DNA from: Cloacimonetes bacterium UBA5614
GTDB taxonomy: Bacteria; Cloacimonadota; Cloacimonadia; Cloacimonadales; Cloacimonadaceae
Length of the DNA: 64,000 nt
Assembly (NCBI GenBank): GCA_002424605.1
Contig: DIKQ01000002.1
Location: 23,483-87,482, forward strand
Reading direction: 5' to 3'
This document shows, in pieces, positions 1,093 through 46,644 of this stretch. The notes under the pieces are model-generated. The model saw only the letters and a list, made by a program, of their open reading frames with translations. It had not been told where the DNA came from and did not search any database. A program made the translations under genes and the position numbers. How positions within the stretch are numbered: position 1 is the stretch's first letter; each line of letters starts with the position of its first letter.

Positions 1093-2310
1093 CTATTCGT
1101 ATCTCAGGGCATCTATCAGGTTCAGGTTCGCTGCTTTTTTTGCAGGATACCAGCCGAAAAAGATGCCGATAGCACAGGAGAAAGTTACTGCCAGAACCAC
1201 TGACCAAGCAGTGATGGATATGCTCCACTGCATGGTTTGTCCCACGATTTTAGCAGCTATATAACCCAGCGCAATACCGATAAATCCACCCATCACACTG
1301 ATTGTAACGGCTTCAATAATGAATTGCAGCAGGACATCCCTTTTCTTGGCCCCTACAGCCATGCGGATGCCTATCTCCTTGATGCGTTCAGTGACAGAGA
1401 CCAGCATGATGTTCATTATGCCGATGCCTCCCACCAGCAGGGATATGCCTGCTATGCTGGCAAGCAGGATAGTAAGGGTGTTGGAGACTGATTCCGAGGT
1501 CTGGGCAATGTCGGTCTGGCTGCGAACCCAGAAATCTTCGGTCGTGGTATCGCGATGCCTTCTCTGGAGCAGGCTGATTATGTCCTGCTGAACCATGGGC
1601 ATTACATCCTTGGATTCTGCAGAGACGTTTATCATCATCATGGGCCTGCGGTCACCCATCAGGCGCGTAAGAACCATAGTGTAGGGAGCAATCACCACGT
1701 CATCCTGGTCTCCGCCCATGATGCTCTGGCCTTTGGACTTGAGGACGCCTATAACGGTGACTGGTACATTGCGGATCCTGATAACCTTGTCAATGGGGTC
1801 TTCGTCCCCAAACAAGCCAGAGGCAACGGTTTGGCCGATGACGCACACCTTATGCCCCGAGCGCACTTCGCTGCTGTTAAAGAAACCGCCCAGCTCAGCT
1901 TCCATATCCCTGATGTAGAAGTAATCCACGTCTGCGCCTATGATGCTGCTGCGCCAGTTCTGGTTCGAATACTTGAGCTGTCCCCAGGTTCTCACGATAG
2001 GGGAGGCATACCTTACACCCTTGACCTCTTCGCGAATGGCATCCACATCATCAATCTTGAGCATGGTTCCCGTGCCTGCTTCGGCCCGGACGGCCGTTCT
2101 GGAACTGCTGAAATTGGAGGAGATGGTCAGCACGTTGGTGCCCATGCTGCTAATCTGGTCATCAACGATTTTCTTGGCTCCCTGCCCGATTGCCAGCATG
2201 GTGATGACTGCTGCCACGCCGATGATGATACCCAGCATGGTCAGAAAGGTGCGGGTCTTGTTTCTCTGCAGGGATTTGAATGCGATTTTTATGATTGCTA
2301 AGATAGGCAT
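1093..2310 (-). CDS. ABC transporter permease, MacB/FtsX family
   Basis: 405 aa with an N-terminal TM helix, a large periplasmic loop and a C-terminal FtsX-type TM bundle. Lies in an operon with the ATPase and adaptor. Confidence 0.85.
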   Translation of the reverse strand: MPILAIIKIAFKSLQRNKTRTFLTMLGIIIGVAAVITMLAIGQGAKKIVDDQISSMGTNVLTISSNFSSSRTAVRAEAGTGTMLKIDDVDAIREEVKGVRYASPIVRTWGQLKYSNQNWRSSIIGADVDYFYIRDMEAELGGFFNSSEVRSGHKVCVIGQTVASGLFGDEDPIDKVIRIRNVPVTVIGVLKSKGQSIMGGDQDDVVIAPYTMVLTRLMGDRRPMMMINVSAESKDVMPMVQQDIISLLQRRHRDTTTEDFWVRSQTDIAQTSESVSNTLTILLASIAGISLLVGGIGIMNIMLVSVTERIKEIGIRMAVGAKKRDVLLQFIIEAVTISVMGGFIGIALGYIAAKIVGQTMQWSISITAWSVVLAVTFSCAIGIFFGWYPAKKAANLNLIDALRYE

Positions 2311-2311
2311 A

Positions 2312-3058
2312 TCAGTCCTCTTCGATGGGTGGAAGCGCCTTCAGGTCCTCTATGGCGGATTTTGGTCTGTCATTCGTAGTATCAGAGCGGATTTTTCCGT
2401 CCTTGAAAGTGATTATTCTATCCGCATACTGGGAGATATCGTGCTCATGCGTGACCAGGATTATAGTGATGCCTCTGGAGTGCAGTTCCTGAAACACAGC
2501 CATGACTTCCACACTGGTGCGGGAGTCCAGGTTTCCGGTGGGCTCGTCCGCCAGCAGGATAACCGGCTCATTGACGATTGCCCTGGCGATGGCAACCCTT
2601 TGTTGCTGACCGCCGGAAAGCTGATTGGGAAAATGATGCGCCCTGTCCTCAATATTCACGTTCCGCATGGCTTTGCGGGTAAGCTCTTTGCGTTCATGAT
2701 GCGAAAGCCTGGTCCTGTAGAGCAGGGGCAATTCCACATTCTCAAGAGCGGTGGTTCTGGACAGCAGATAGAAGGACTGAAAGACATAGCCTATCTTCTG
2801 GTTACGGAGGTTTGCCAGCTCTTCTTCCGGAATGGTGTGGACGCCAATCCCGTCCAGCGAGTACTTGCCGGAAGTGGGCTTATCCAGGCAGCCGATGAGG
2901 TTCATCAAAGTTGTCTTGCCGGAACCGCTGGCGCCCATGATGGCAATGAACTCGCCTTTATTGATGTTCAAATCCACTCCCCGCAGGGCATGGACTTCCA
3001 CATCGCCCATTATGTAGGTCTTGGTCAGCTGTTCGATTTTTACCAGTGGTTCAGACAT
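2312..3058 (-). CDS. ABC transporter ATP-binding protein (MacB/LolD-like)
   Basis: Walker A GASGSGKT, ABC signature LSGGQQQR, Walker B ILLADEPT. Confidence 0.95.
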   Translation of the reverse strand: MSEPLVKIEQLTKTYIMGDVEVHALRGVDLNINKGEFIAIMGASGSGKTTLMNLIGCLDKPTSGKYSLDGIGVHTIPEEELANLRNQKIGYVFQSFYLLSRTTALENVELPLLYRTRLSHHERKELTRKAMRNVNIEDRAHHFPNQLSGGQQQRVAIARAIVNEPVILLADEPTGNLDSRTSVEVMAVFQELHSRGITIILVTHEHDISQYADRIITFKDGKIRSDTTNDRPKSAIEDLKALPPIEED

Positions 3059-3066
3059 AGCTTATC

Positions 3067-4539
3067 CTATCGACCGGGACCGAACCCGCCCGGGGTAAAG
3101 GCGGAACGGTTTGCGGCGGAAGCCTGCTTGGCGTTTTTATAGTTTACGCCGGCAATGAATTCCTGTCCTTCTGTGATGCCGGAGATTACTTCCGCAAAGT
3201 TACCGTCCGAAAGTCCTGTTACCACCTCTATCGCTTTGGGTTTGCCGTTTTCCAGCACCCAGACGCGGTTGCGGGTGGTGCGGACTCGGTCGCTGCTGTT
3301 GGCATCAAAGACAAACTCGCCGCCTGTGCTGCTTTTGCCTTCCACTGCTTCCGAGGGTTTTCCTTCCTGACCGGCCTTGCCTCGTCCTTCGCCTCCGCGC
3401 ATTTTCTGCATGAATTCCCTTCTCTGCTCCGGAGTCATATTCTCCAGTTTTGCGCGCAAGCTGTCCGGCAACTGCTGTCTTTGTCCGGAACTGGATGCCT
3501 GGGTTTCTCCGGCAGGTGGCTGTCCGGTGGGTGCAGCGGCTTCTCCGTTCTGCATGGAGCGTCCCCGTCCACGCAGGGAAGCTGTGAGGCTATCATCCCA
3601 TTTCAGCCCGAACTGCTTCCACAGTTCTTTGCTGGGCCTGAAACGCAAGGCAGTTTCGGGGATACGCAGCACGTTCTGCTTTTCTTTCACAATGATGGTT
3701 ACGTTGGCGGTCATGCCGGGCAATAACTTTAGCTGGGGGTTATCCACATCTATGATAACGCTGTAGGTGACCACGTTTTGGGAGGAGGTGGGGCTGAGGC
3801 GCACCTGATTGACCTTGCCCAAAAACTGTTCTGTGGCAAAGGCGTCAACCTTGAATTCCACATCTTCGCCGACCCTGATTTTACCGATATCCGCTTCGTC
3901 TATGTCTGCGTTTATCTGCATTTTCCTTAGGTTGTTGGCGATGATAAACAGGGTGGGCGAACTCATGCTGGCAGCCACTGTCTGCCCTTCCTCCACTTTG
4001 CGGGAGATGATTACTCCGTCAATGGGGGAGGTGATGATGGCGTTTTGCAGGTTCTTTTCCGCCCTTTGCAGGGAGAAACGTGCGTTGGCAAGCGTTTGCA
4101 GGGTCTGTTCGTATTTATTCCTGGCTTTCAGCAGGTCATAGTCTGTGCCCATACCCTGTCTGTTAAGCTCGGTCTGCAGGTCCAGGTCTATTTTGGCATC
4201 GTCGGAACTTAGCTTTGCCCTGCGGACATCTGCGCGGGCAGATTCCAGGGCGGTTTCCAGGTTTTCCGTATCCAGTTTGGCAAGTATGTCACCTTGCCTT
4301 ACAGTTGAATTAAAATCTTTGAAAATCTTGGCGATTTTTCCTGAAATCTCGGTGCCCACTTCCACCTGTGAGGAAGGGTTGAGGGTTCCGCTGGCAGTCA
4401 CCAGTTCACGGATGTTGCCGGTTGAAGTTGTGTCCAGACGCCATTCCGGTCTGTTGCGGTTTTTCCTGTATTGCGTGTAGCCGATGATTAGTGCCGCAAG
4501 CACTATAACGATGATTGCGTATCTGATGGCTTTTTTCAT
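3067..4539 (-). CDS. HlyD/MacA-family periplasmic efflux adaptor with a low-complexity insert
   Basis: N-terminal TM anchor, coiled-coil hairpin region and beta-barrel motifs. First gene of the adaptor-ATPase-permease operon. Confidence 0.8.
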   Translation of the reverse strand: MKKAIRYAIIVIVLAALIIGYTQYRKNRNRPEWRLDTTSTGNIRELVTASGTLNPSSQVEVGTEISGKIAKIFKDFNSTVRQGDILAKLDTENLETALESARADVRRAKLSSDDAKIDLDLQTELNRQGMGTDYDLLKARNKYEQTLQTLANARFSLQRAEKNLQNAIITSPIDGVIISRKVEEGQTVAASMSSPTLFIIANNLRKMQINADIDEADIGKIRVGEDVEFKVDAFATEQFLGKVNQVRLSPTSSQNVVTYSVIIDVDNPQLKLLPGMTANVTIIVKEKQNVLRIPETALRFRPSKELWKQFGLKWDDSLTASLRGRGRSMQNGEAAAPTGQPPAGETQASSSGQRQQLPDSLRAKLENMTPEQRREFMQKMRGGEGRGKAGQEGKPSEAVEGKSSTGGEFVFDANSSDRVRTTRNRVWVLENGKPKAIEVVTGLSDGNFAEVISGITEGQEFIAGVNYKNAKQASAANRSAFTPGGFGPGR

Positions 4540-4670: not shown

Positions 4671-4800
4671 TGTTTCCTTTATCTTTTCTTTGCCTGTTCC
4701 TTGCTTAGATGTCCCGAAGATGTCCCGAAGCCGGCCGGGTTTTCTTCGGGAGGCTTCGGGACATCTCCGCGACAACTAACTGAGGGAAAAGAGAGAAACA
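4671..4800. repeat. Element A copy 1: CT-rich leader plus modular palindrome (GATGTCCCGAA x2 ... CTTCGGGA x2)
   Basis: Near-identical to 11813-11930. Core 4697-4749 and 4754-4777 are identical by manual alignment. GATG modules start at 4708 and 4719 (11-nt period), and inverted CTTCGGG modules start at 4744 and 4754. Confidence 0.85.
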
Positions 4801-4819: not shown

Positions 4820-5074
4820 GCAGAGTCGAATATCCCGGGCTCTGACCCGAATTCAGGACATAAAACTATACGAAAGCGGATATCTCCGTAATCGGACAGT
4901 GTTTGCATAAAGTGAAGACAGACAGTAGGATAGACTGCTTGTAGATAGGGTGTATTACGGATTCGGAGAAACCTCTTGAGCAGGAAAACCGGGATACGGA
5001 CGGCTATTGTGCTGCAAAATAGTGTGTTAAGATGTTGGAACAAAGATTGATTATACTTGACTTTGATATGATAT
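4820..5074 (+). promoter_or_regulatory. Duplicated non-coding control block (homolog of 15648-15901), including a fossil EBP-gene 3' end
   Basis: Collinear, high-identity manual alignment with the region between the EBP gene and the pseudo-receiver gene of unit 2. Confidence 0.8.
5036..5051 (+). promoter_or_regulatory. Candidate sigma-54 (-24/-12) promoter, TGGAAC-N5-TTGAT
   Basis: GG and TTG elements at the canonical spacing. Conserved in position with 15863-15878. An NtrC-type EBP is encoded in the locus. Confidence 0.45.
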
Positions 5075-5217
5075 GTGTAAGTATTGGTAATCAGTTCCAG
5101 CTATTATGAACAGGATGCATCTGCTGGATAAGAGTCCCCGGAATCGGACACAGGTGAAACTGGTTAGATCTTAGAAATCAGAATTATAAAAATAAACTAG
5201 AGAGTGAAGGAGAAGTC
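5075..5217 (+). pseudogene. Remnant of the pseudo-receiver gene (nonsense at codon 2 plus ~260-nt internal deletion)
   Basis: GTG TAA GTA TTG GTA here versus GTG AAA GTA TTG GTA at 15902. The 5' ~45 nt and 3' ~110 nt of the 15902-16327 gene are retained and the middle is missing. Confidence 0.75.
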
Positions 5218-8200
5218 ATGAAAAAGCTCGTTATAGTTTTTATGCTGTGCCTGCTGGGTGCGCTTCATGCAGAAACCCGTATAGTATCGTTAACCGATGC
5301 AAGGAGAATTGCAGACAGCAATGCCGCCATATTATGGGGCGGAAATCTCGGATCTGCAGAACCAATCCCTTACTACGGACCGGATGATAAAATCATAGCT
5401 TACCATTTCAACTATGCCATTGGCAGACCTTTTCCTGATAAACATTCTCTTCAGCAAAGAAGCGGTGAGGCACTGTCATCCGGTAACCGAGACCTGGGCT
5501 GGGGCGTGGGCGAATTTGGCAATATGGTTATCGGTGCTAATCGTAATATGCCCGTCTTTGTGGAATATTCCAAATGTCTCTCACAGCAATACGCTTATGC
5601 CCAAAAACTGGAAGAAGCAGCTTCCCGCGAGTTTCCCAAAGGATACGAACTGACCAAAACATACTATCTGGGACTGGTAGATGTCTGGTATAGAATAAAC
5701 GACGGGAATGAAACCAAATATATAAATCTTGAACCCTATACCAAGGTAAAAACAGAGACGGAATTTCGTGAGATGATAAAAGACAAGATCTTTTTCTGGG
5801 AAAGGGACAGTTTTGAGGAGGAATGGGAATACCTGCTGGATAACGGCAACACTATGAGCAGAGCAGAAGTGATGATTCCCGGTGAAGAGCTGATGCCATA
5901 CTATGAGTGGAACTATGGCTGCACACCAACTTCCGGAGCCATGCTTTTTGCCTGGTGGGATGCCTATAAAGGTTATGGTAAACTGATAAAGCACCATTCA
6001 ACCAAATGGGATCCTGTGGTTGGTCGATACACACATCACGTTCCAGATATTCAGGGTATACTGGCAAACACTATGGATACAGGTTCTGATGGCACTACTT
6101 ATTCGTGGGACATTTGTGATGGAATGGTCGATGCTGCAAGTATTGTCGGATACAACTGTGAATCTGACGGTCTTTGGGCTCTTCACCATACTGTAGCAAC
6201 CTTATTTAATGGAATTCGAAATTCAATTGATAGTGGTTATCCAATATTGGTTGACACCTGGTCACATACGATGTGTGCGGTTGGTTATGGAACCTGGCCT
6301 TCCATGGTTCTCGTGCATGACCCTAATCTACCAGCCATTAGATTTCTTTCCAGGTCCTCGTTATGGCGATACTATTGGGCAGATTTTGAACCTTTAAATG
6401 ACTTCCACTCGGCTGAGTTGAATTTTCCCAATGGCGGGACCCAGTGGGAGAATAACTTTGGCGGCGAAACTCTGATATCCGGAATCTATTATGACATTAC
6501 CTGGAGTTCCACACTCAGTCCCAATGCCTATGCCAAGATTTATTATCATGACGAGGGCGGATCGACATCCAACAGATGGTTTCCCATAACCTTATACACT
6601 CCCAATGACGGACATTACCGGTGGCTGGTTCCAACTATTCAGGGTTGTATGTACGGTATCAATACTGACTATGCCAGAGTAAAAATCGAAATCTATGATA
6701 ACAACACCCATCAATTGCTCGCCGCAGACGGGAGCTACGGCAATTTAAAAATAAAAGGCGATTACGTCATGCCCTGGTTGAATGCCGCAGGTACCAATAT
6801 CAATACCAGTAAAATTTACACCAGAATAAATCATTCGACCAATAATAACTGGGGACTGATTGCTTTCCGTGGTTCAAATAGCAACATAGACATAGAGCTT
6901 TACCAGAGTCCGGATTTTTACAATCAGCTATATACCTCGCAATCCCCTTCAAGTTTGAATTATATGCTGATAAACAACTTCCAGCAAACACCCAACGCTT
7001 ATGGAGTCAAGTTTGCTACAGATGTATCATCTTTTCAGGGTAGTGCTGCATTTGTAACATCCAATGCTTCACAAATAAGTCCATATATAACATACAATTA
7101 TGACTGGGGTAATACTGATATAGCCAAAGTTTATCAGGTTTACCTGACACCCGGTCAATATTCTATTACAATGCACAGAATTGCCGGTTTTATGGATCTT
7201 GATATAGCTCTCTATGCGCCTGGCTCGGGTGTTTATACCTATAACCAGGCAGTAGCATATTCCAATAATTACGGTACCGTTGATGATGTAATTGTTTACA
7301 GGGTTACAACTGCCGGTTATTATGCTTTGGTTGTCAGTTGCAGTTCCGAGCATAACGGAGAATACTCAATTCTTATCGAAAACGCCGGTAAATGGCTGGG
7401 GACGGTAAGCAACAACTGGTTCAACCCCGCTAATTGGGTAGGCAATACCGTGCCGAATTTAACAAACGATGTGGTAATACCTCCCGATTGTCCCAATTAT
7501 CCCATTCTTTGGTCAGGAACTTATCCCGAGATTAAGTCCATAAGGATTGAATCGAATGCTTTTCTGACCATCGGAGCCACCGAGATGAATGTCCACCAGA
7601 GCATGCAGGTCTATGGCACTATCAACATGACCTCGAACAGCAGCGTTTTGAGTGTGGGAGAAAACCTGTATTGGGGAGCCGGTTCTTCTCTGGTAGGCAG
7701 TATTTACAATTACCAGATAGTATGTTACAAAAACTGGGACTTTGGATTAGGTTCCAATATTCAGATGACTTCGGGTACCGTGGTATTCTGGGGGGACGAG
7801 GACAGCTATGTCACCACCAGTTCTGCCACTTCCAGGTTCAATAATGTGACCATAAACAAACAATACACTCTCACAGGCAGGTCTGTCATCCATAGCGGAA
7901 ACTCATCCAATGACTGGAGAGTTAACGGCAACCTCTTAATATCAAGCAGCTATTCCACCCTGCGCTCAGATTCAGAGAAAAAAATCATTTTGCTGAACCC
8001 CATTACCAACAACGGGTATATCGAACTGGATAATGGCACCCTTGAACTTACTGCCAGCTGTTCCCTTCCCTATCTATCCACTGGCAACTATCTTAACAAT
8101 CTTGTAATCAGCACTAATGCAGTCAATGCCTTGCCTTCAAATTATAAAATAGTGGGCAATCTCACCATCAACAGCGGTGGCATCGATGCCAACACCAGAA

Positions 8201-11200
8201 CCATTACCTTGTCCGGTAACTTTATAAACAATGTCGGACCTTCAGGATTTGTCAAAGGAACCAGTACCGTAATCTTTAACGGATACGGAGACCAGAGATG
8301 CACCAATGGCAATTTCCACCGCATGGAAGTTAACAAGACGACCGGCAATGTCAAATTCACGGGAACAGGTGCCATTTCAAATGTGGATATCTACGACTGG
8401 ACAACCGGCGGTATAGAAGTAAATCAGGGAGCTCTGACCATTTTTGATTTAGCGGATAACGGCTTGTATGGCACCTACAAAATGACGGGAGGTACTCTAA
8501 ACGTTAATCAGGATAACTCCCAATATACAGACCTTAATGGCAGTCTGTATATCTACAGCGGGACCATGAATGTCTATGGTGGAAACGGAAACAGCTACTG
8601 GCCATATGCAGCCAATGCCCACATAGAAATGCATGGCGGAGTGCTGGATTTCAAAAACCGCGGGATTTACGTCTACAATTCTCCGGTCTTTTCGCTGACT
8701 ACAGAGCTTTTTGGGGGCAGAATCCGCACAGCTGGAAGTTTTCTCTGTTACCGTCCGGACTTCCAGCCTGCCGGGGAGTATTACCTTGAACTTTATGGCA
8801 GTACGGATGCCAACATCTATCTGCATAGTTCCGCCTCGGTACACTCTGTAATATTCAACAAAGGCAGCAACCGTTCGGAGGCCTGTCCTCCCGGGCTTGA
8901 CCTGATAAGACGGGACGGGGTCGACTTTCCCGCAGAACTGCGCAATAGTGAAAATGACTTGACCAGAATCAATCAGGTTAACCTCATCAGCAACGTCTAT
9001 ATCTTCGGTGACCTGATTATCGAATCAGGTACCGTCAACCTGAACAGCTACACCCTGACCACTGAAAGCGATACTGATGTAATAAATGGCACCATTCTAA
9101 TGAACCAGGCATCAGCCCGGTTAGTGACCTATGGCAGATTCCAGTGGGGAGAGAATGCCACACTGAACGTCACTGCAGGTGAAATGCATTTCTATTATCA
9201 TCTTACTATAGCCGAGAATTCTGTCTTCCAGATGGGTTCCGCCACGACAGCCAGATTCTGGACTGAGTTCAGCAAAATTATCAACTATGGTGCCAACTGC
9301 CAGTTCGGCTATGTTGTGCTGGAAGACGGATGCGAACTGGAAATCCTGGACTTTCAGCCGGTTACGATTACAAGCGGCCTGATCCTCCAGGGCGAAAGCA
9401 TTCTGCAGGTCAATGGAGTCCTCAATGTCATCGGCTATGTTGTTGTCTATGAATATGCCAATATCTATATCCGGGCAAACACGACAATCGATTATTACAT
9501 CAATTTGTATGGTGTCCTGACCATAGATAACTCCACTTTAACCTGTCACAGTTACTTATATAACATTGGCGGATCTCTGGTCTTGAATAATAATGGCAGT
9601 TGCATACTTGACAGGGCATTTGACAGCACTTACCATCAGATGGATGGAGTATATATTATAAACAGCGGTGTATTTGAAGTTACGAACAACGGTGTCCAGT
9701 TTACCAACGACTCCTATGTTACCATGTATGGCGGCACCCTCCGCACCGGCTGGAATTTTTGGGCAACCATAGCCAACAGGTTTAATCCGGCTGGCGGCAG
9801 TGTGGAGTTTATCGGAGACAGAAACGCTTCCCTCTGGTGCAATAATGGCAATTACTTCCATAATCTCATCTTCAGCAAACCCGGCACCAGGAGTGTTGGG
9901 ATAAACACGGATTTGCAGATTAATGGTGATTTAATCCACCAGAGCGGTTATTCTGCTATGAACGGATACAACATCCACATCATGAGGGACGTAATTATCC
10001 ACGCAGGCAGAATGGGTGCTTCCAGCACCGACCTGACTGATATCTATGTGGGCAGGAACTGGATAAAAAATGGCGGCTCCTTTGTTGCGGGAACTAATTC
10101 ATTAAACGGCTGCACTGTGCATCTCATCAGTGCCGGTGAAAATGCCGTCCTCTCTACTGAATCATTCTATAACCTTCACATCAACAAACAGAATGCGGTC
10201 GGAAACATTGTTTCGCTGCAGCCCTCTGCTACTGTGCAGGTAAATGGCGCTCTGGACATTGAGCGGGGAAAACTGAATGTGTTGAGTAACAGCATCCTGG
10301 ATGTCAACAACCATCTGACCATCATGCCCGGTGGCGGTTTGCGCCTTAGTGATACTTATACTGGCGGAACCCTTAAACTGGCAGGAAACTTTACCGACCA
10401 GAACACCACTATGGCTGGAGGTGATGGCTTTCAGGCATTAGACGACTGCCTGGTAATTCTGGATGGAACTGCAGACCAATACTTAACCGCTAATTACCCC
10501 TGGCTGCAATTCTATCATTTGTCCGTCGACAAATCCTCCGGCAGGGTTATGCCAAACAGCAACGTGACAATCGCCAGAGAACTGCACCTTGTAAGAGGAG
10601 AGTGGCATTATGGGCAACAGAATGTGGAGTTAGCCATTGGTACAGATTTGGTCGTAGAAGCGGCTGCATCTTTCAATTATTTTACGGGTTGTGTCCGGTT
10701 TGAAAGCTGGAGGGACAGCAATATCACAATCCTTGGTACCGCTAATATGGCTGCTATCCGCATTGATAAAGGCGGCTTCAACTTCAATCTTACCGGGAAC
10801 ACCGTCATTGGCGGAGAACCGGAAATCAGCCTCTACTCCGGTATCATCAACCTGAACGGCCACACCCTTCAGTTGGATGCAGGCCGTATATACATTGGCT
10901 CTGCTGTTTCCACAGTATTTCTGCAGGCGGGTTCTGTCCTCAGTTTGGGCAATGATTTTGTGGTTGAGGTCGTCAACGGCGGCAGATTCGTCACACTGGG
11001 AACGGAAGCCAATCCGGCTCTTGTCACCAGTCATAATGGTTACTATATCTTTATTGTGTTTGATAATGGTAAAATCGGCGGAAGCTGGGGCATCTATGAA
11101 AAGATGAGTGCTGAAGGAATTTGGTTTGAACAGGCATCCAGCCCGGTTGATAATACTTACCCCTGGACTTATCCAACCTTCCGCAATGGCGCACCCGGCG

Positions 11201-11637
11201 GTTCTCTGCTGACCTTTGACGGAGATAATGTCAGCAACATTGTAATTCAAAATCCCATCTTTCCTGCCAATACCTGGGGCAGTATTTACAATGTCGAAAA
11301 GTTTTCATCAATCGGTTCCGTCACTCTGCAGAATGCTACAGGCGCTTTTGCCGGTGCAGTTTTTGAAAGTGACATGTATAACACCGTTCACTGGACTTAT
11401 GTTCTTCAACCACCACAGAACTTTAAAGTTCAAGTAATTAATAATGAATTGGTTTTTTCTTGGGATGCTGTCCCTAATGTCAACGGTTACAACTTGTACT
11501 ACTGTTCAGACCCTGATTTCTCAAGCTCTCCGGTGGGAACCGTTTCTGACGGGGTAGCTGATACGTTCTTTTCTACTCCCTTAATCTGGTTCCCTGAGCC
11601 CTATATGTTTTTCAGGGTAACTGCATTTCAGGATTAA
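5218..11637 (+). CDS. Giant secreted protein 1 (2139 aa): signal peptide, papain-like cysteine peptidase, PPC-like domain, long beta-helix repeat region, C-terminal FN3-like domain
   Basis: RBS GAAGGAG lies before the ATG. Signal peptide is MKKLVIVFMLCLLGALHA. Cys motif YGCTPTSGAM (Cys235, nt 5920-5922) and His motif SHTMCAVGYG (His350, nt 6265-6267). Repeated GNLTINSGG / LSGNFINN type strands. C-terminus has ...SWDAVPNVNGYNLYY...FFRVTAFQD. Confidence 0.9.
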   Translation: MKKLVIVFMLCLLGALHAETRIVSLTDARRIADSNAAILWGGNLGSAEPIPYYGPDDKIIAYHFNYAIGRPFPDKHSLQQRSGEALSSGNRDLGWGVGEFGNMVIGANRNMPVFVEYSKCLSQQYAYAQKLEEAASREFPKGYELTKTYYLGLVDVWYRINDGNETKYINLEPYTKVKTETEFREMIKDKIFFWERDSFEEEWEYLLDNGNTMSRAEVMIPGEELMPYYEWNYGCTPTSGAMLFAWWDAYKGYGKLIKHHSTKWDPVVGRYTHHVPDIQGILANTMDTGSDGTTYSWDICDGMVDAASIVGYNCESDGLWALHHTVATLFNGIRNSIDSGYPILVDTWSHTMCAVGYGTWPSMVLVHDPNLPAIRFLSRSSLWRYYWADFEPLNDFHSAELNFPNGGTQWENNFGGETLISGIYYDITWSSTLSPNAYAKIYYHDEGGSTSNRWFPITLYTPNDGHYRWLVPTIQGCMYGINTDYARVKIEIYDNNTHQLLAADGSYGNLKIKGDYVMPWLNAAGTNINTSKIYTRINHSTNNNWGLIAFRGSNSNIDIELYQSPDFYNQLYTSQSPSSLNYMLINNFQQTPNAYGVKFATDVSSFQGSAAFVTSNASQISPYITYNYDWGNTDIAKVYQVYLTPGQYSITMHRIAGFMDLDIALYAPGSGVYTYNQAVAYSNNYGTVDDVIVYRVTTAGYYALVVSCSSEHNGEYSILIENAGKWLGTVSNNWFNPANWVGNTVPNLTNDVVIPPDCPNYPILWSGTYPEIKSIRIESNAFLTIGATEMNVHQSMQVYGTINMTSNSSVLSVGENLYWGAGSSLVGSIYNYQIVCYKNWDFGLGSNIQMTSGTVVFWGDEDSYVTTSSATSRFNNVTINKQYTLTGRSVIHSGNSSNDWRVNGNLLISSSYSTLRSDSEKKIILLNPITNNGYIELDNGTLELTASCSLPYLSTGNYLNNLVISTNAVNALPSNYKIVGNLTINSGGIDANTRTITLSGNFINNVGPSGFVKGTSTVIFNGYGDQRCTNGNFHRMEVNKTTGNVKFTGTGAISNVDIYDWTTGGIEVNQGALTIFDLADNGLYGTYKMTGGTLNVNQDNSQYTDLNGSLYIYSGTMNVYGGNGNSYWPYAANAHIEMHGGVLDFKNRGIYVYNSPVFSLTTELFGGRIRTAGSFLCYRPDFQPAGEYYLELYGSTDANIYLHSSASVHSVIFNKGSNRSEACPPGLDLIRRDGVDFPAELRNSENDLTRINQVNLISNVYIFGDLIIESGTVNLNSYTLTTESDTDVINGTILMNQASARLVTYGRFQWGENATLNVTAGEMHFYYHLTIAENSVFQMGSATTARFWTEFSKIINYGANCQFGYVVLEDGCELEILDFQPVTITSGLILQGESILQVNGVLNVIGYVVVYEYANIYIRANTTIDYYINLYGVLTIDNSTLTCHSYLYNIGGSLVLNNNGSCILDRAFDSTYHQMDGVYIINSGVFEVTNNGVQFTNDSYVTMYGGTLRTGWNFWATIANRFNPAGGSVEFIGDRNASLWCNNGNYFHNLIFSKPGTRSVGINTDLQINGDLIHQSGYSAMNGYNIHIMRDVIIHAGRMGASSTDLTDIYVGRNWIKNGGSFVAGTNSLNGCTVHLISAGENAVLSTESFYNLHINKQNAVGNIVSLQPSATVQVNGALDIERGKLNVLSNSILDVNNHLTIMPGGGLRLSDTYTGGTLKLAGNFTDQNTTMAGGDGFQALDDCLVILDGTADQYLTANYPWLQFYHLSVDKSSGRVMPNSNVTIARELHLVRGEWHYGQQNVELAIGTDLVVEAAASFNYFTGCVRFESWRDSNITILGTANMAAIRIDKGGFNFNLTGNTVIGGEPEISLYSGIINLNGHTLQLDAGRIYIGSAVSTVFLQAGSVLSLGNDFVVEVVNGGRFVTLGTEANPALVTSHNGYYIFIVFDNGKIGGSWGIYEKMSAEGIWFEQASSPVDNTYPWTYPTFRNGAPGGSLLTFDGDNVSNIVIQNPIFPANTWGSIYNVEKFSSIGSVTLQNATGAFAGAVFESDMYNTVHWTYVLQPPQNFKVQVINNELVFSWDAVPNVNGYNLYYCSDPDFSSSPVGTVSDGVADTFFSTPLIWFPEPYMFFRVTAFQD

Positions 11638-11760: not shown

Positions 11761-11797
11761 GGCTGCCGCGCTCTCCTTGCCGGCAGCCGTTTTTTTT
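11761..11797 (+). terminator. Rho-independent terminator of giant gene 1
   Basis: GGCTGCCG ... CGGCAGCC stem followed by T8. Same sequence as 22792-22828. Confidence 0.85.
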
Positions 11798-11812: not shown

Positions 11813-11930
11813 TTGTTTCCTGCTTCTTCCTTGCTTAGATGTCCCGAAGATGTCCCGAAGCCGGCCGGGTTTTCTTCGGTTATCTTCGGGACATCTCCGC
11901 GACAACTCACTGAGAAAGTAAAGAGAAACA
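11813..11930. repeat. Element A copy 2
   Basis: tgtttcctgcttcttccttgcttaGATGTCCCGAAGATGTCCCGAAGccggccgggttttCTTCGGttatCTTCGGGACATCtccgcgacaac, near-identical to copy 1. Confidence 0.85.
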
Positions 11931-12053: not shown

Positions 12054-14306
12054 ATGCCTAAAACTATTATAAGTAATAGTTTAGTGTCTTCATCATCTGA
12101 CTGCAGTGCCGGGGAGAAGGCCGGCGAGTTACTGCAGAAAGCTGTTTCGTTTTTGAAAAACAATCCGGAAGAAGCGTTGCGTTATGCCGTCAAGGCAGAA
12201 CAGATTGCAAAAAAAAATAATCAATCCTATGAACTGGCAATGGCAGGGAAGATTGCCGGGAATGTACACTTTAACAGAAACGCTAATGACCAGGCGCACA
12301 AAAAATACCAATCAGCCCTCAAACCAGCCCTGCAAGCAGGCGATGATAAGCTTTTGGGGGATTTGCACTATAACCTGGGCAGGACCTTTACACGCAAAAA
12401 AGATTACCAGCCCGCCCTTGAGCATTTGCTGAAATCTCTGGAATACAGGAAAAAACTACCCACCAGAGAAGATGAAAGCGCTTCGCTGAACCATATCGGA
12501 CAAGTTTACTGGGAACTGAAAGACTATGACAAGGCAAGCGACTTTTTCCGGAACTCTACGGAATTGATTAACCCGGACGAACAAATTTTGCTTGCTTCCG
12601 CAGTGTATAACAATCTCGGGAATGCCCTGCTGAAAACCGGGAACACGGATAAAGCGCTGGAAGCATACCTTGTTTCGCTGCATTGCAAGGAAAAGCTGGG
12701 CAAGGACGACAGTATCGCCACAGCTTACATCAGTCTGGGAAACCTTTATTTTACCTGCGGGGAGTTTTACAAAGCGGCGGAGTTTTATCTCAAGGCAAGT
12801 AAAAAGTTTGATAAACCCGGATACCGCAAAATGGCAGCCACGGCTTTTTCCAACCTTGGCTCCACGTACAACGAACTGGGAAATGACAAGCTGGCTCTTC
12901 AGTTCCACAGAAAAGCGCTAAAGGTTTTTGATACAGAAAAACTGCCGGAAGAAGAAGCCAAATCGCTTAATAACATCGGGAACGTCTATCTGAAACGGCA
13001 GGATTATAACAAAGCGCTGAGCTATTTCCGGCAAGCGCTGGAAATCAAGCTGATGAAGGGCGATAATGAAAGCCTGGCAATTGCCTACAACAATCTGGGC
13101 AGTGTATTCTGCCTGAAAGGAAACCTGAAAGCTGCAGCGGAGAACTTTGCCATGTCGGTAAGCCATGCGGAACAAACCGGCAACAAGAAAATGCTGTTGG
13201 AGAATTACAGCCGTTTGGGAGACGTCTCTGCCGCTCTTGGCGACTACGAGAATGCCTTTGAATTTCTCAGGAAACACTGCAAGGCAGATTTGGAGCTTTA
13301 CAGCGAGGAATCCAGGAACAGATTGACTGAGACGATGGTGCGCTTTGACGTGGAGCTCAAAACCAGCGAGATTAATCAACTCACTGAACTGCAGAAAGTC
13401 CAGAAAGAAATGCTGGACAGGCAGATAAGAGACAAGCTGCGTTATATGAATCTGTACCGCTCCAAACAACGTGAAGTCAAAAAACGCGAGCAGGCCCAGA
13501 AAGCTTTGCAGGCATTGAACAAGGATTTGGAAGTCCGCATCGAAAAAGCCCTGGCTGAATATAAAGTTCAGCAGGAACTTATCATCCAGAAATCAAAACT
13601 GGAATCCCTTGGCGTGCTGGCAGCAGGCATCGCGCATGAGGTTTACCAGCCGCTTTCCGCCATCTCCATCAGCATTAACAATATGCGCAATAAAGCCCAG
13701 AAAAATGAGCTGACCAGCCAATATCTTAGTAATAAATTTAACCGGATTTCGGAAGACATACAGCGCATCCGCCAGGTAATCGAGCACGTACGTCTGTTTT
13801 CCCGCGAGCAGAAAGATAACCATCTGGAAAGGATAGACATTCACCAGACCCTCAAGGATGCCCTGAGGCTGATAGGATATGATTTGAATAGGCAAGGCAT
13901 CAAAACCAGCCTGAATCTGGCGGAGTCTTCCCCTGTTTCTGTGGGCAGTAAATTCAAGCTGGAACAGGTGTTTCTGAACCTGATATCCAATGCCAGGGAC
14001 GCAGTATTGGAAAAGCAAGCAGGCAAATCCGCCTATGAACCGCAGATAGAAATCAGGACAAGCACCCGCAACGCAAGCGTCGAGATTGACTTCACAGATA
14101 ATGGTACCGGAATGAGCCAGGCAGTGACTGACAAGATGTTTGACCCGTTTTTCACCACCAAAAATCCGGAAAAGGGAACGGGTCTGGGGCTTTCCATCAG
14201 CTACGGCATCATCAGGGAAATGGAAGGTGAGATATCCGTACTGAGCGAACCTGATGAGTTCACAAGAATCACAGTTAAGCTTCCTGACCTGCAGGAGAAA
14301 AGATGA
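12054..14306 (+). CDS. Cytoplasmic TPR-repeat sensor histidine kinase
   Basis: About 400 aa of TPR-like repeats, then a coiled coil. H-box LAAGIAHEVYQPL, N-box NLISNARDA, G1 DNGTGM, G2 GTGLGLS. No hydrophobic TM segment seen. Confidence 0.85.
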   Translation: MPKTIISNSLVSSSSDCSAGEKAGELLQKAVSFLKNNPEEALRYAVKAEQIAKKNNQSYELAMAGKIAGNVHFNRNANDQAHKKYQSALKPALQAGDDKLLGDLHYNLGRTFTRKKDYQPALEHLLKSLEYRKKLPTREDESASLNHIGQVYWELKDYDKASDFFRNSTELINPDEQILLASAVYNNLGNALLKTGNTDKALEAYLVSLHCKEKLGKDDSIATAYISLGNLYFTCGEFYKAAEFYLKASKKFDKPGYRKMAATAFSNLGSTYNELGNDKLALQFHRKALKVFDTEKLPEEEAKSLNNIGNVYLKRQDYNKALSYFRQALEIKLMKGDNESLAIAYNNLGSVFCLKGNLKAAAENFAMSVSHAEQTGNKKMLLENYSRLGDVSAALGDYENAFEFLRKHCKADLELYSEESRNRLTETMVRFDVELKTSEINQLTELQKVQKEMLDRQIRDKLRYMNLYRSKQREVKKREQAQKALQALNKDLEVRIEKALAEYKVQQELIIQKSKLESLGVLAAGIAHEVYQPLSAISISINNMRNKAQKNELTSQYLSNKFNRISEDIQRIRQVIEHVRLFSREQKDNHLERIDIHQTLKDALRLIGYDLNRQGIKTSLNLAESSPVSVGSKFKLEQVFLNLISNARDAVLEKQAGKSAYEPQIEIRTSTRNASVEIDFTDNGTGMSQAVTDKMFDPFFTTKNPEKGTGLGLSISYGIIREMEGEISVLSEPDEFTRITVKLPDLQEKR

Positions 14307-15673
14307 ATACGCAACACATTCTGATTCTGGACGACGAACCCCGCCTGAGAGAGGAATTACTTGAGTTCCTGACTGATGAAGGATACAAATGCTTTGAAGC
14401 CAGCTCTCCTTCCGAAGCTATGAAAGTAATCAGGGCAAACAGGATAGACATAGCCATAGTGGACATCAATCTGCCTGAAAAAGATGGCATTGCAGTCTTG
14501 AAGGAAATCAAGGAATATGACGAGGATATTGAAGTCCTGATGATAACCGGACAGGGAGATATGGATCTTGCCATCCGTTCGATGCGGTCCGGAGCTGCTG
14601 ATTTCTTTAACAAACCCATTCAGCCAGAAGAAGTCCTGCAGGCAGTGGAACGGAGCAAGCGTTTCATCAATCTCACCCGGCGCTGCCAGCATTTACGCAA
14701 CAATTATGACAGGGTGTTTCATGAACTGCAGGATAATCTGGGATTGCAGATGCTGGGCACCAGTAAAGCCATCAGGGAGATAAAGTCCGATATTGAGACC
14801 GCAGCAAAAAACCCTGACACAGCAGTCCTGATCAGCGGTGAAAGCGGTACGGGAAAGGAACTGGTTGCTCGCAGCATCCATCACCTGAGCGCCCGGAAAC
14901 ATCACTATTTCTATGCGGTTAATTGCGCTGCTATTCCGGAAAACCTGTTTGAAAGCGAGTTCTTTGGATATACCAAAGGTGCCTTCACAGGCGCTGCCGC
15001 CAATAAGCAGGGCTGGTTTGAAATTGCCGACAAAGGAACGCTGTTTTTAGACGAAATCGGCGATATGCAGCCCTTTATGCAGGCGAAACTGCTGCGTGTG
15101 ACGGAAGACGGAGTGGTTCACAGATTGGGGAGCAACAGGGATATCCAGGTCAATGTCAGATTGATTTCCGCCACTAACCGGGATATAGCAGATTTGGTTG
15201 ATAAGGGGATTTTCAGGCAGGACCTCTATCATCGCCTGAACACTATACAGATACATATCCCTCCCCTGAGGGAACGCCGGGAAGACATCCCTGTCCTGGT
15301 GGAACACTTCCTGCGTCATTTTACCCAAAAGACCGGAAAAGCCATCCCGGAAATTGAATCAGGCCTTTTGGACAAATTGATGCAATATCCCTTCAAAGGC
15401 AATGTCAGGGAGTTGAAGAATATGCTGGAAAGGGCTGTCATCCTCTGCGATGGCTCCCGGCTCAGCCAAAAGCACTTTAACTCGCTTGGCAACGACAAAT
15501 CAAACCACCATTCACCATCTGGCGAACCTGAAAATCTGAACTTGGAATCCCTGGAAAAAGAAGCGGTGAAAAAAGCTCTGCAAAGCTGCGGCAACAACAA
15601 ACAGCAGGCGGCAAAACTACTCAATATTACCTGGCAGTCACTGGAACGCAGAATCAAGAAACACGGGCTCTGA
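14303..15673 (+). CDS. NtrC-family sigma-54-dependent response regulator (REC, AAA+, Fis-type HTH)
   Basis: REC domain (ILILDDE, VDINLP). Walker A GESGTGKE, sigma-54 contact loop GAFTGA, Walker B LFLDEIG. C-terminal HTH AAKLLNITWQSLERRIKK. ATGA overlap with the kinase gene. Confidence 0.92.
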   Translation: MNTQHILILDDEPRLREELLEFLTDEGYKCFEASSPSEAMKVIRANRIDIAIVDINLPEKDGIAVLKEIKEYDEDIEVLMITGQGDMDLAIRSMRSGAADFFNKPIQPEEVLQAVERSKRFINLTRRCQHLRNNYDRVFHELQDNLGLQMLGTSKAIREIKSDIETAAKNPDTAVLISGESGTGKELVARSIHHLSARKHHYFYAVNCAAIPENLFESEFFGYTKGAFTGAAANKQGWFEIADKGTLFLDEIGDMQPFMQAKLLRVTEDGVVHRLGSNRDIQVNVRLISATNRDIADLVDKGIFRQDLYHRLNTIQIHIPPLRERREDIPVLVEHFLRHFTQKTGKAIPEIESGLLDKLMQYPFKGNVRELKNMLERAVILCDGSRLSQKHFNSLGNDKSNHHSPSGEPENLNLESLEKEAVKKALQSCGNNKQQAAKLLNITWQSLERRIKKHGL

Positions 15674-15862
15674 GCCGAACTCAGGATAGATAGCTATACG
15701 AAAGCGGATACCTCCGTAATCGGATAGTGTTAGCATAAAGTGATGACAGACAGCAGGATAGACTGCATTTCTGCGGATGTTTGACGGAATCGGATAGTCT
15801 TTTTGAGGCGGAAATCCGGGACGCGGACAGCTATTGTGCTGCAATATAGTGTGTTAAGGTTT

Positions 15863-15878
15863 TGGAACAAAGGTTGTT
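15863..15878 (+). promoter_or_regulatory. Candidate sigma-54 (-24/-12) promoter, TGGAAC-N5-TTGTT
   Basis: Lies about 25 nt upstream of the GTG at 15902, which is preceded by RBS GAGGTGA. Positionally conserved with 5036-5051. Confidence 0.45.
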
Positions 15879-15901
15879 AATACTAATAGCAGAGGTGAGA
15901 T

Positions 15902-16327
15902 GTGAAAGTATTGGTAACCAAGTCCAGCCTTTATGAACGGGATGAACTGCAGGAGTTTTTCCAGGACCATTCCTGGGAGCCCACTTTTGCAGAAGAGTCC
16001 AAAACGATGTATCAGATGCTGTCGCGGGAGGATTTTGATACAGTCCTGTTTAATCTCAGCAGTACGGATGACTTTGCTGCCATCAGGTACATTAACAGGA
16101 ACTATCCGAATATCCGGGTGATAGTTTCCACCGATGACAGGCTGGTATCGACCATCCGCAATGTGCGGGCAGGCAAGTTCACGGTAACGGGCCATCTGGA
16201 AAAGATGAATCTGCTGGAAAAGCTGTTCCCGGAATCGGACACAGGCGAAACTGCTGATACAGGAAAGTCGGAAATAGAAGAAGTCAGAAATATAAAAATC
16301 AACAAGAGAGTGAAGGAGAAGTTATGA
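15902..16327 (+). CDS. Stand-alone pseudo-receiver (REC-like fold lacking phospho-acceptor residues)
   Basis: GTG start after GAGGTGA. By eye it aligns to CheY-like receivers, but the acidic pair is TK (KVLVTKSS), the phospho-Asp position is Asn (VLFNLSS), and the conserved Lys is absent. ATGA overlap with giant gene 2. Confidence 0.65.
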   Translation: MKVLVTKSSLYERDELQEFFQDHSWEPTFAEESKTMYQMLSREDFDTVLFNLSSTDDFAAIRYINRNYPNIRVIVSTDDRLVSTIRNVRAGKFTVTGHLEKMNLLEKLFPESDTGETADTGKSEIEEVRNIKINKRVKEKL

Positions 16328-22791: not shown

Positions 22792-22828
22792 GGCTGCCGC
22801 GCTCTCCTTGCCGGCAGCCGTTTTTTTT
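22792..22828 (+). terminator. Rho-independent terminator of giant gene 2
   Basis: GGCTGCCG ... CGGCAGCC stem followed by T8. Confidence 0.85.
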
Positions 22829-22842
22829 ATACTGAAGAATAT

Positions 22843-22945
22843 TGTTTCCTGCTTCTCCCTTTATGAGATGTCCCGAAGATGTCGCGGAGATGGCCGGGTT
22901 TTCTTCGGGAGGCTTCGGGGCATCTTCGGGACATCTAAGTAAGCG
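22843..22945. repeat. Element A copy 3 (rearranged variant, 3 + 3 modules)
   Basis: Same CT-rich leader (tgtttcctgcttctccc). GATG modules start at 22867, 22878 and 22889. CTTCGGG modules start at 22903, 22913 and 22924. There is a perfect 16-bp pairing between 22866-22881 and 22921-22936. Confidence 0.8.
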
Positions 22946-23050
22946 GGGATTGAGCAATATTCATGCGGGAAAATAAATCTGCTTGACAATGTTTCCTCAT
23001 TATATCAAGGTGATAAATGTAAGATAATTAGTCTAACCATCAACAGATTT

Positions 23051-23380
23051 ATGTATCGCAAGGGGGATATGATGAACGTTGAGCTCACCTATGATGGCAA
23101 GACCGCAGTAATGAAGATTGACGGTATTCTGACCAGTGATAACAGCTATATATTGCAGGACAGGCTGAATGAAGTGCTGAAAAGCGAAGCCTCGGTACTG
23201 GAGATGGATTTGCTGGAATGCCGTAACATCAGCAGTACCGGTATCGGCAAAATTTTACTTTTTTACAAAGACTTCATAGCCAAAGGCGGGGAAATAGAGG
23301 TCGTTCGCTGTTCCCACGGCGTTTACGAGCTGTTCTCCATGTTAAAACTGAATCAGCTTTTCACGGTGAACCTGGGATAG
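23051..23380 (+). CDS. STAS-domain anti-sigma-factor antagonist (SpoIIAA/RsbV-like)
   Basis: ~100-aa STAS pattern (MKIDGILTSDNSYILQDRL...ISSTGIGKILLF...VRCSHGVYELFSMLKLNQLF). The true start is probably ATG 23069 or 23072, after AAGGGGGA. Confidence 0.75.
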   Translation: MYRKGDMMNVELTYDGKTAVMKIDGILTSDNSYILQDRLNEVLKSEASVLEMDLLECRNISSTGIGKILLFYKDFIAKGGEIEVVRCSHGVYELFSMLKLNQLFTVNLG

Positions 23381-41312: not shown

Positions 41313-41342
41313 GCAAAGATGATCAACAGAATTGAGGATAAA

Positions 41343-46617: not shown

Positions 46618-46644
46618 ATTAACTTGTTTTATCTGGAGGAGTCA

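Follow-up and report, generated by a model that had tools for sequence, protein, structure and literature searches.

Gingipains (RgpB and Kgp; peptidase family C25, clan CD) are built, in order, of a signal peptide, a prodomain, a cysteine peptidase, an Ig-like domain, adhesin-type modules (haemagglutinin/cleaved-adhesin domains), and a C-terminal sorting domain. SPATE, Hap, and IgA1-protease passengers carry an N-terminal serine protease head on a long three-faced β-helix, i.e., a displayed enzyme on a rigid spacer, and are exported via a C-terminal barrel. ColG has C-terminal tandem collagen-binding domains, and the choice-of-anchor families of NCBI combine a conserved core with alternative sorting or anchoring ends. 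Cloacimonadota are abundant uncultured fermenters of protein and amino acids in digesters and anoxic waters, and their attack on polymeric protein is known from gene lists only. Here we describe two giant secreted proteins, G1 and G2, encoded in a 64,000-nt stretch of Cloacimonetes bacterium UBA5614 (contig DIKQ01000002.1, positions 23,483 to 87,482; hereafter the window, to which all coordinates refer). With a probability that we put at roughly 0.55, G1 and G2 are displayed extracellular or cell-surface cysteine peptidases that this uncultured Cloacimonadota bacterium exports through Sec; their activity, substrate, secretion route, and regulation are what we infer below.

Architecture of the two giant proteins

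G1 (5218–11637, + strand; 2139 aa) and its paralogue G2 (16324–22752, + strand; 2142 aa) are intact open reading frames (ORFs) with 61% identity over 2122 aligned residues, and a protein identical to G1 (P0001) was present on two public contigs. Structures were predicted using AlphaFold2 (AF2) for G1 residues 1–940 and 940–2139 from 29-sequence alignments, with mean confidence (predicted local distance difference test, pLDDT) of 90.3 and 88.7, respectively. G1 and G2 share a Sec signal peptide, a conserved N-domain, a C39-like clan CA domain, an Ig-like and two PPC-like β-sandwiches, a three-faced β-solenoid of ~1300 aa, and an FN3-like end. An initial annotation, made by a model from the sequence, had proposed a pair of proteins with one architecture, and the order of the parts was borne out by AF2. 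The signal peptide that it had noted (residues 1–18; 5218–5271, + strand; MKKLVIVFMLCLLGALHA followed by ETR), which we read from the sequence, is of the typical Sec type in both giants and forms a helix at residues 2–17 of the AF2 model, with low confidence at residues 16–19 (pLDDT < 50). All the motifs that it had quoted were located in both proteins, i.e., NYGC(235)TPTSGAM, WSH(350)TMCAVGYG, and VLVH(367)DPN (HDPN, residues 367–370) in G1 and SYGCTPTAAAM, DRHSIAGVGYN, and IIIHDSN in G2. No description of this architecture was found in the papers searched, including searches for C39 together with a type IX secretion system (T9SS) or Cloacimonadota.

The C39-like peptidase head

Residues 226–400 of G1 (5893–6417, + strand) were assigned to a C39-like papain-fold peptidase domain from Pfam, the family alignment, and AF2. 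Residues 227–370 align to profile positions 4–143 of 143 of PF13529 (Peptidase_C39_2). In an alignment of 40 heads from Cloacimonadota, Bacteroidales, and WOR-3 (21–84% identical to G1), Cys235, His350, and His367 (codons at 5920–5922, 6265–6267, and 6316–6318, + strand) were invariant, and further invariant residues included Trp203, Trp231, Gly234, Pro237, Asp248, Met286, and Thr288; position 368 was Asp, Asn, or Tyr. PF13529 matched 34 of these 40 heads at E ≤ 0.01 (best, 6.9e-11), and its gathering cut-off of 24 bits was exceeded by the relatives P0031 (32.5 bits), P0006 (33.7 bits), and P0026 (25.9 bits). P0031, a head-only protein of 533 aa that NCBI names "C39 family peptidase", shares 51% identity with the G1 head across 520 aa (E 6e-170). 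In the AF2 model, Cys235 lies at the N-terminus of helix 235–251, His350 opens strand 350–358, and His367 ends the next strand, a predicted placement that fits papain-like folds. These results suggest that the head is a probable papain-like Peptidase_C39_2 domain with a putative Cys235/His350 dyad, the third catalytic residue being probably His367 or Asp/Asn368.

The clan CA papain-like head with conserved Cys and His that the initial annotation had proposed is thus backed by homology to PF13529 and by the invariant residues in the 40 heads. That annotation had likened the motifs to families C10 and C39. The likeness to C39 stood, through the PF13529 matches of the relatives, and that to C10 did not: neither Peptidase_C10 nor Inhibitor_I69 matched whole G1 and G2 at E ≤ 1 or the N-domains at E ≤ 10. 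Since the catalytic domain falls in a known Pfam family and relatives already bear an NCBI name, the head family is not "unassigned", as it had been called. A PDB sequence search with G1 gave no match, and no characterised member of the head subfamily was found in the literature searched.

We found 30 relatives of 1200–3700 aa, nearly all with a precomputed PF13529 match, and a scan of GTDB species genomes gave at least 79 loci in Cloacimonadota, Bacteroidales (Lentimicrobiaceae, Prolixibacteraceae, and Draconibacterium), and WOR-3. The WOR-3 members (~720 aa) consist of the head and a tail resembling the C-terminal domain (CTD) of T9SS cargo, the Bacteroidales members (~2100–2900 aa) mostly end in a T9SS type A CTD, and the Cloacimonadota members, including G1 and G2, end in an FN3-like module. 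When 1.84 billion representatives were searched exhaustively with the 520-aa head, the result was 438 clusters at E ≤ 1e-3, some of the weaker matches being to the repeated Ig-like module only, and 73 clusters at E ≤ 1e-30. The head subfamily, which comprises about 70–200 clusters at 50% identity among these representatives, is real but rare.

A β-solenoid stalk shared with other proteases

Residues 723–2040 (7384–11337, + strand), 60% of the protein, form the stalk. It opens at residue 723 with GKWLGTVSNNWFNPANWVGNTVPN (GKWLGT...NWFNPANWVGNTVPN), the W-x-G...NW...VP opening motif, and is all-β in the AF2 model, with three short strands per turn of ~20–26 residues, about 38 rungs plus 15 long strands, and two long-hairpin regions. 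The predicted β-helix of ~1300 aa rich in Gly, Asn, and Thr was recovered as a three-faced solenoid, and its composition was as counted (Gly 10.8%, Asn 10.7%, Ser 8.5%, and Thr 8.2%). The proposed likeness to autotransporter β-strand repeats did not hold: there was no hidden Markov model (HMM) match at E ≤ 1, and the long Foldseek alignments of the stalk to the Hap, SepA, and IgA1-protease passengers were non-significant (probability 0.03–0.07). The stalk model had no Foldseek match in the PDB at E ≤ 0.001. The only long low-confidence segment of the stalk is a disordered loop at residues ~1220–1250 of G1 (~8875–8967; pLDDT 32–38). This loop of ~30 residues is variable; both paralogues have ACP(P/A)GLD in it, and it may act as a hinge or be a site of processing.

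A search with the stalk alone (G1 residues 940–2040) returned 80 proteins from Cloacimonadota and Bacteroidales that differ in their N-terminal parts. In addition to the C39_2 heads of G1, G2, and their relatives, the stalk carries gingipain-like C25 heads (Propeptide_C25, Peptidase_C25, and C25_C; P0199, P0233, and P0241), subtilisin S8 heads (Peptidase_S8_N and Peptidase_S8; P0030, P0213, P0216, P0228, P0232, and P0249), M6 heads (P0193, P0219, and P0223), and a Trypsin_2 head (P0248, which also has a CTD). In P0174, P0179, P0188, P0215, P0244, and P0251, the stalk is headless, and the signal peptide leads directly into the W-x-G...W stalk start. The S8 protein P0030 aligned to the G1 stalk with an E value of 9e-66. 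In the enzyme-bearing stalk proteins, the enzyme and its own prodomain occupy the place of the N-domain and the C39-like head of G1. Nothing argues more strongly for a functional extracellular peptidase in the head, and for the N-domain as the equivalent of a prodomain, than the presence of sister enzymes with prodomains at this place.

The comparison shows that the stalk is shared, as a generic display scaffold, by C39-like, C25, S8, M6, and trypsin-like heads. Since four further protease classes occur on this stalk in related bacteria, stalk-mounted proteases look like an undescribed but not exotic way to display extracellular proteases. The stalk would serve as a rigid spacer and scaffold, and with its ~38 rungs it would be roughly 18 nm long.

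The N-domain and the β-sandwiches

The family-specific α/β N-domain (residues ~25–225; 5290–5892, + strand; pLDDT ~95) is a candidate prodomain and takes the position of Propeptide_C25 and Peptidase_S8_N in the sister stalk proteins. Nothing meaningful was found for it in Pfam at E ≤ 10, so that the case for a prodomain is one of position. It is the best-conserved part of the protein, with 45–57% identity to other Cloacimonadota-type relatives versus 35–52% for the peptidase domain. The initial annotation had singled out a nearly identical N-terminal tract of ~95 aa as a possible propeptide. The near-identity was confirmed and the length was not, since the tract spans residues 1–117; moreover, near-identity that reflects gene conversion (see below) is not informative on a propeptide. 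By position, the whole N-domain (25–225) is still a plausible propeptide. Its most likely role would be that of a prodomain or chaperone-inhibitor, and a conserved Arg/Lys near residue 215 may be the site of its removal.

The Ig-like β-sandwich predicted by AF2 at residues 401–520 (6418–6777, + strand) showed a weak match to choice-of-anchor H (NF038116), and Kre9_KNH matches were located there in 9 of 40 relatives. This module was also found as tandem arrays in other proteins. AF2 and Foldseek placed two PPC/collagen-binding-like β-sandwiches at residues 521–722 (6778–7383, + strand), which matched the tandem collagen-binding domains of ColG (5iku; E 1.2e-8) and a PPC domain (5sv5; template modelling [TM] score 0.74, root mean square deviation 2.9 Å over 105 columns); the PPC Pfam model had no sequence-level match in the giants. 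The PPC-like fold expected from the initial annotation was therefore found, in two of three sandwiches rather than in a single one. Residues 521–722 are the most variable region between alleles. The sandwiches probably hold the polymeric substrate, and the combination of a signal peptide with PPC/collagen-binding-like sandwiches is typical of secreted proteases.

The C-terminal module and secretion

Residues 2041–2139 (11338–11634, + strand) form an FN3-like module, which ends in MFFRVTAFQD and stops after strand F, as judged from Foldseek and AF2. With the last ~90 residues, Foldseek gave FN3 at a probability of 1.0, with TM scores of 0.52–0.63 and E values of 0.06–0.5 to single-domain FN3 structures; the Pfam fn3 model reached only E 0.098, on the end of G2. 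The terminal FN3-like fold that had been noted is thus supported, but the domain is incomplete: an FN3 domain is a 3+4 sandwich of seven strands (A, B, C, C′, E, F, and G), and the AF2 model has six, strand G being missing. In 43 fetched proteins, the chain ends 2–5 residues past the F-strand motif (F/Y)Y(R/K)VTA, whereas the complete FN3 domains in L090–L092 go on with the FG loop and strand G.

As the initial annotation had stated, G1 and G2 are without a T9SS CTD: the CTD models (types A, B, and C; TIGR04183 and PF18962) gave no match at E ≤ 1 on their C-termini. A divergent type A CTD was also considered for the FN3-like end and rejected, since hhalign against 36 family CTDs gave a probability of 0.3% and no CTD model matched. 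Elsewhere in the window, the ORF at 46624–49275 has a T9SS CTD (TIGR04183, 39.9 bits); none of the core T9SS genes was located within the 64 kb. An ExeM/NucH-like nuclease (39831–41312, + strand) has a weak CTD-like tail and is directly followed by an outer-membrane protein resembling the PorV/PorQ family (41319–42194, + strand; NF033709, 59.7 bits versus a cut-off of 90), and the two may be a cargo and shuttle pair.

Alternative ends in relatives include the T9SS type A CTD, a dockerin-like tail, an FGE-sulfatase domain, a Fibrobacter paralogous domain, and the FN3-like module. A CTD was recognized in L036 (TIGR04183, 58.9 bits), near threshold in L047 and the WOR-3 members, and also in P0026, P0028, and P0029. 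These CTDs of the Bacteroidales and WOR-3 relatives, together with the CTD cargo and the PorV/PorQ-like protein of the window, back a surface or extracellular destination. Many stalk proteins (P0006, P0011, P0012, P0017, P0030, P0177, P0191, P0197, L013, and L027) end in a dockerin/calcium-binding-like tail, D-x-(N/D)-L-(D/N)-x-Q-V-x-N-x-DKND...(S/T)Q(V/I)P(E/D); dockerin-bearing enzymes have been reported in Cloacimonadota (PMC8542988).

A 379-aa secreted protein unrelated to the giants (29231–30370, − strand) has the same truncated FN3-like end (AFFRVTADSGR at the terminus; hmmsearch E 7e-10) and matched no Pfam or NCBIfam family, which hints at the module as a reusable C-terminal signal. 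When metagenomes were scanned with this module, six further stalk proteins came up along with three FN3 domains of the ordinary, complete kind and no new case of the module on an unrelated protein, so that the 379-aa protein is the only such case. The C-terminus would decide the destination of each protein, G1 and G2 using the lineage-specific FN3-like module without strand G. Tentatively, and with much less confidence than in a peptidase function, we consider that this module (FY[RK]VTAxx and stop) may be a new signal for C-terminal sorting or anchoring, in place of the T9SS CTD and perhaps completed in trans by a strand of an anchor protein, combined with cassette insertion and recombination as a specificity switch.

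Recombination and the mosaic of heads and stalks

Identity between G1 and G2 is unevenly distributed. It is 94% in residues 1–117 and 91% in residues 766–885, where 81% and 84% of the identical residues, respectively, have identical codons, and it falls to 42% in residues 298–705 and 49% in residues 1546–1902, with 46% and 41% identical codons. At the nucleotide level, 5218–5568 and 16324–16674 are 91% identical. The high codon identity in the conserved tracts therefore indicates gene conversion between the paralogues.

The single giant of a sister strain, P0002 (L003, 10001–16396), is 89–98% identical to G1 in residues 1–297, is 88–100% identical to G2 in the stalk from ~770 (≥97% in most windows of the comparison), and diverges from both in residues 298–705. 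By these sequence comparisons, P0002 is a chimera of a G1-like head N-terminus and a G2-like stalk. Residues 298–705 are 29–78% identical among the G1, G2, and P0002 alleles, while the flanking genes are 97–99% identical. Within this variable block lie the three sandwiches and the half of the peptidase that bears the His residues, which are the parts expected to contact the substrate. These results show that heads and stalks recombine between paralogues and strains and that the head and sandwich regions diversify in this way.

Organization of the locus

The gene order is a divergent HlyD–ABC–MacB operon, a palindrome, G1 with its terminator, a palindrome, a TPR histidine kinase, a sigma-54 regulator, a 141-aa ORF, G2 with its terminator, a palindrome, and genes for a STAS-domain protein and a response regulator/HATPase_c_2 protein. 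The operon identified by Pfam (1093–4539) is directly upstream of G1. The kinase (12054–14306, + strand; Pfam) and the sigma-54-dependent response regulator (14303–15673, + strand; Response_reg, Sigma54_activat, and HTH_8) lie between the two giants. The 141-aa ORF (15902–16327, + strand) overlaps the G2 start codon by 4 nt and encodes a degenerate receiver-like protein with weak NCBIfam receiver matches. It has Asn at the would-be phospho-accepting Asp (DTVLFNLSS), and a homologue was located upstream of the L007 giant. The STAS-domain protein (22950–23384, + strand) and the receiver/HATPase_c_2 protein (23381–24286, + strand) make up a partner-switching pair after G2 that is also present in L003; the receiver part of the latter matched that of the T9SS regulator PorX at a score below threshold (80.9 bits versus a cut-off of 300).

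The region upstream of G1 (4820–5217, + strand) is a copy of that upstream of G2 (blastn, 79% identity); a deletion has removed ~250 bp, comprising most of the 141-aa ORF, and the AAGGAG ribosome-binding site is kept. Each giant is followed by a 37-nt terminator hairpin (11761–11797 and 22792–22828, + strand), and the two copies are identical. A palindromic element of ~60 bp, two copies of GATGTCCCGAAG followed by the reverse complement CTTCGGGACATC, has just three copies in the 64 kb, all of them next to giants: at the left (4708–4765) and right (11838–11895) flanks of G1 and after G2 (22867–22935), with nine 12-mer matches versus 0.36 expected. In the sister genome L003, the flanking proteins are 97–99% identical to those of the window, a single giant lies at the G2 position downstream of the kinase, regulator, and 141-aa ORF, and the palindromic elements (5515–5572 and 16511–16579) are at the corresponding two places. 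The upstream copy and the repeat junctions, compared with the single giant of L003, show that G1 is an extra cassette inserted at the palindromic repeat. The repeat-flanked cassette and head/stalk recombination may be a mechanism that switches substrate specificity. In an older assembly of the locus, L001 (JGI 3300000558, Draft_10004510), G2 is split into ORFs of 1287 and 843 aa and the sigma-54 regulator has 392 instead of 456 aa; as both genes are intact in the ENA contig L002 and in the window, these differences are probably assembly frameshifts.

Dedicated two-component and sigma-54 control of the giants, as claimed in the initial annotation, was not supported. Outside the window, the kinase and regulator adjoin a giant only in the closest relative (L003/L004), and this adjacency was not seen at the other loci listed (at least 79), save for occasional sigma-54 regulator homologues within 10 kb. 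No canonical −24/−12 promoter (TGGCAC-N5-TTGC) was located upstream of either giant. The nearest similar elements are TGGAAC-N5-TTGT at 15863, in the conserved region upstream of the 141-aa ORF/G2 operon (15648–15901, + strand), and TGGAAC-N5-TTGA at 5036; neither has the GC of the −12 box. As the family at large does not share the adjacency and this GC is missing, sigma-54 control is a guess from adjacency. An Rfam search of the whole window gave no match.

Discussion

Several observations weigh against G1 and G2 being displayed peptidases, a reading that concerns a predicted activity. The PF13529 scores of G1 (18.6 bits for the whole protein and 20.8 bits for the head alone) are below the gathering cut-off, and G2 had no direct match at E ≤ 1. 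The geometry of the Cys235–His350 dyad is deduced from the order of secondary structure elements alone. Foldseek searches of the PDB and viral libraries with the 940-residue multi-domain model gave lists filled by β-sandwich and phage receptor-binding protein matches, among which the peptidase domain did not surface, and a PDB-sequence search with the 40-head profile gave only marginal matches (papain-like effector GtgE, E ~1). By sequence identity, the N-domain is better conserved than the catalytic domain, which is uncommon in a propeptide, and a protein of 230 kDa would have to cross the outer membrane without a recognizable CTD. Furthermore, an invariant Cys-His-His set like this one is likewise a typical feature of NlpC/P60 amidases. 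Surveys of phage endolysins also list Peptidase_C39_2 among their domains; for both of these reasons, the substrate could be peptidoglycan rather than protein. The head would then be a peptidoglycan amidase/endopeptidase or another effector against neighbouring cells, and the giants would serve at the surface as weapons of antagonism or predation whose specificity evolves fast. The hypervariable residues 298–705 beside flanks of 97–99% identity, together with the head swaps, are indeed a pattern typical of polymorphic effectors. However, the same stalk bears C25, S8, M6, and trypsin-like proteases, PPC domains are typically found in secreted proteases, the Pfam and NCBIfam scans detected no cell-wall-binding domain in G1 and G2, and no immunity-like gene adjoins them, the sole small neighbouring ORF encoding a cytoplasmic receiver-like protein. 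We therefore regard a cell-wall target as unlikely.

An equally doubtful view is that each giant is mainly a structural adhesin or surface-layer fibre, the head serving only for self-processing or maturation or being catalytically irrelevant. The stalk is more than half of the protein, its disordered loop could be a processing site, and since headless stalk proteins exist, the stalk has a function of its own. The catalytic residues are, however, invariant across three phyla, and head-only proteins of about 530–720 aa (P0031 and the WOR-3 members) exist without a stalk, so that the head also functions alone; five protease classes on one stalk further argue that the stalk serves the enzyme and not the reverse. 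The divergent HlyD–ABC–MacB operon directly upstream of G1 and the resemblance of a protease head on a β-helix to SPATE passengers, with the long Foldseek alignments to Hap, SepA, and IgA1 protease, might suggest that G1 is a substrate of this tripartite exporter or is type V autotransporter-like. This is very improbable. Export by the MacB/HlyD pump was rejected because the adjacency is restricted to the closest relatives and a Sec signal peptide is present; moreover, in the single-copy relative, the exporter is separated from the giant by the kinase and regulator genes. For an autotransporter, no RTX, autotransporter barrel, or PATR match was found, the C-terminus is an FN3-like sandwich and not a barrel, and the Foldseek probabilities did not exceed 0.07. 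This explanation is thus largely refuted.

If G1 and G2 are displayed cysteine peptidases, as we favour, they would digest extracellular protein to peptides for an amino-acid-fermenting anaerobe. A stalk displaying five peptidase classes would then be a concrete, testable model of extracellular proteolysis in Cloacimonadota and would offer a starting point for the function of hundreds of giant proteins now called "hypothetical". The truncated FN3-like end, where relatives have a T9SS CTD or a dockerin-like tail, would be a candidate new sorting signal in a phylum whose secretion is unstudied. In the searched literature, the head subfamily, the stalk shared with four other protease classes, and the truncated FN3-like terminal module are undescribed; the Pfam family of the catalytic domain and the NCBI names of relatives are already known.

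Comparison with known systems

As in PF13529/C39 proteins, residues 226–400 of G1 cover the full profile and keep the Cys and His, and relatives exceed the cut-off; here, however, the domain sits between a family-specific N-domain and an Ig-like sandwich, and the three are conserved together as a head of ~520 aa. The variety of C-terminal ends recalls the choice-of-anchor families, and relatives are indeed named choice-of-anchor J or D domain proteins, but the core is a peptidase plus a giant stalk, and the FN3-like end without strand G is no recognised sorting signal. SPATE, Hap, and IgA1-protease passengers share the plan of a protease head on a long three-faced β-helix, whereas their heads are serine proteases, the barrel through which they are exported is absent in the giants, and there is no significant similarity (probability ≤ 0.07 and no HMM match). 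Residues 521–722 match the tandem s3a–s3b fold of ColG, and in the giants these PPC/collagen-binding-like domains are hypervariable and lie between the enzyme and the stalk instead of at the C-terminus. Compared with gingipains, the catalytic fold of the giants is clan CA (C39-like) and not clan CD (C25), G1 and G2 lack a CTD, and the adhesin part is a β-solenoid. Nevertheless, the order of parts is that of gingipains, sister proteins on the same stalk are C25 peptidases with Propeptide_C25, and many family members end in a type A CTD.

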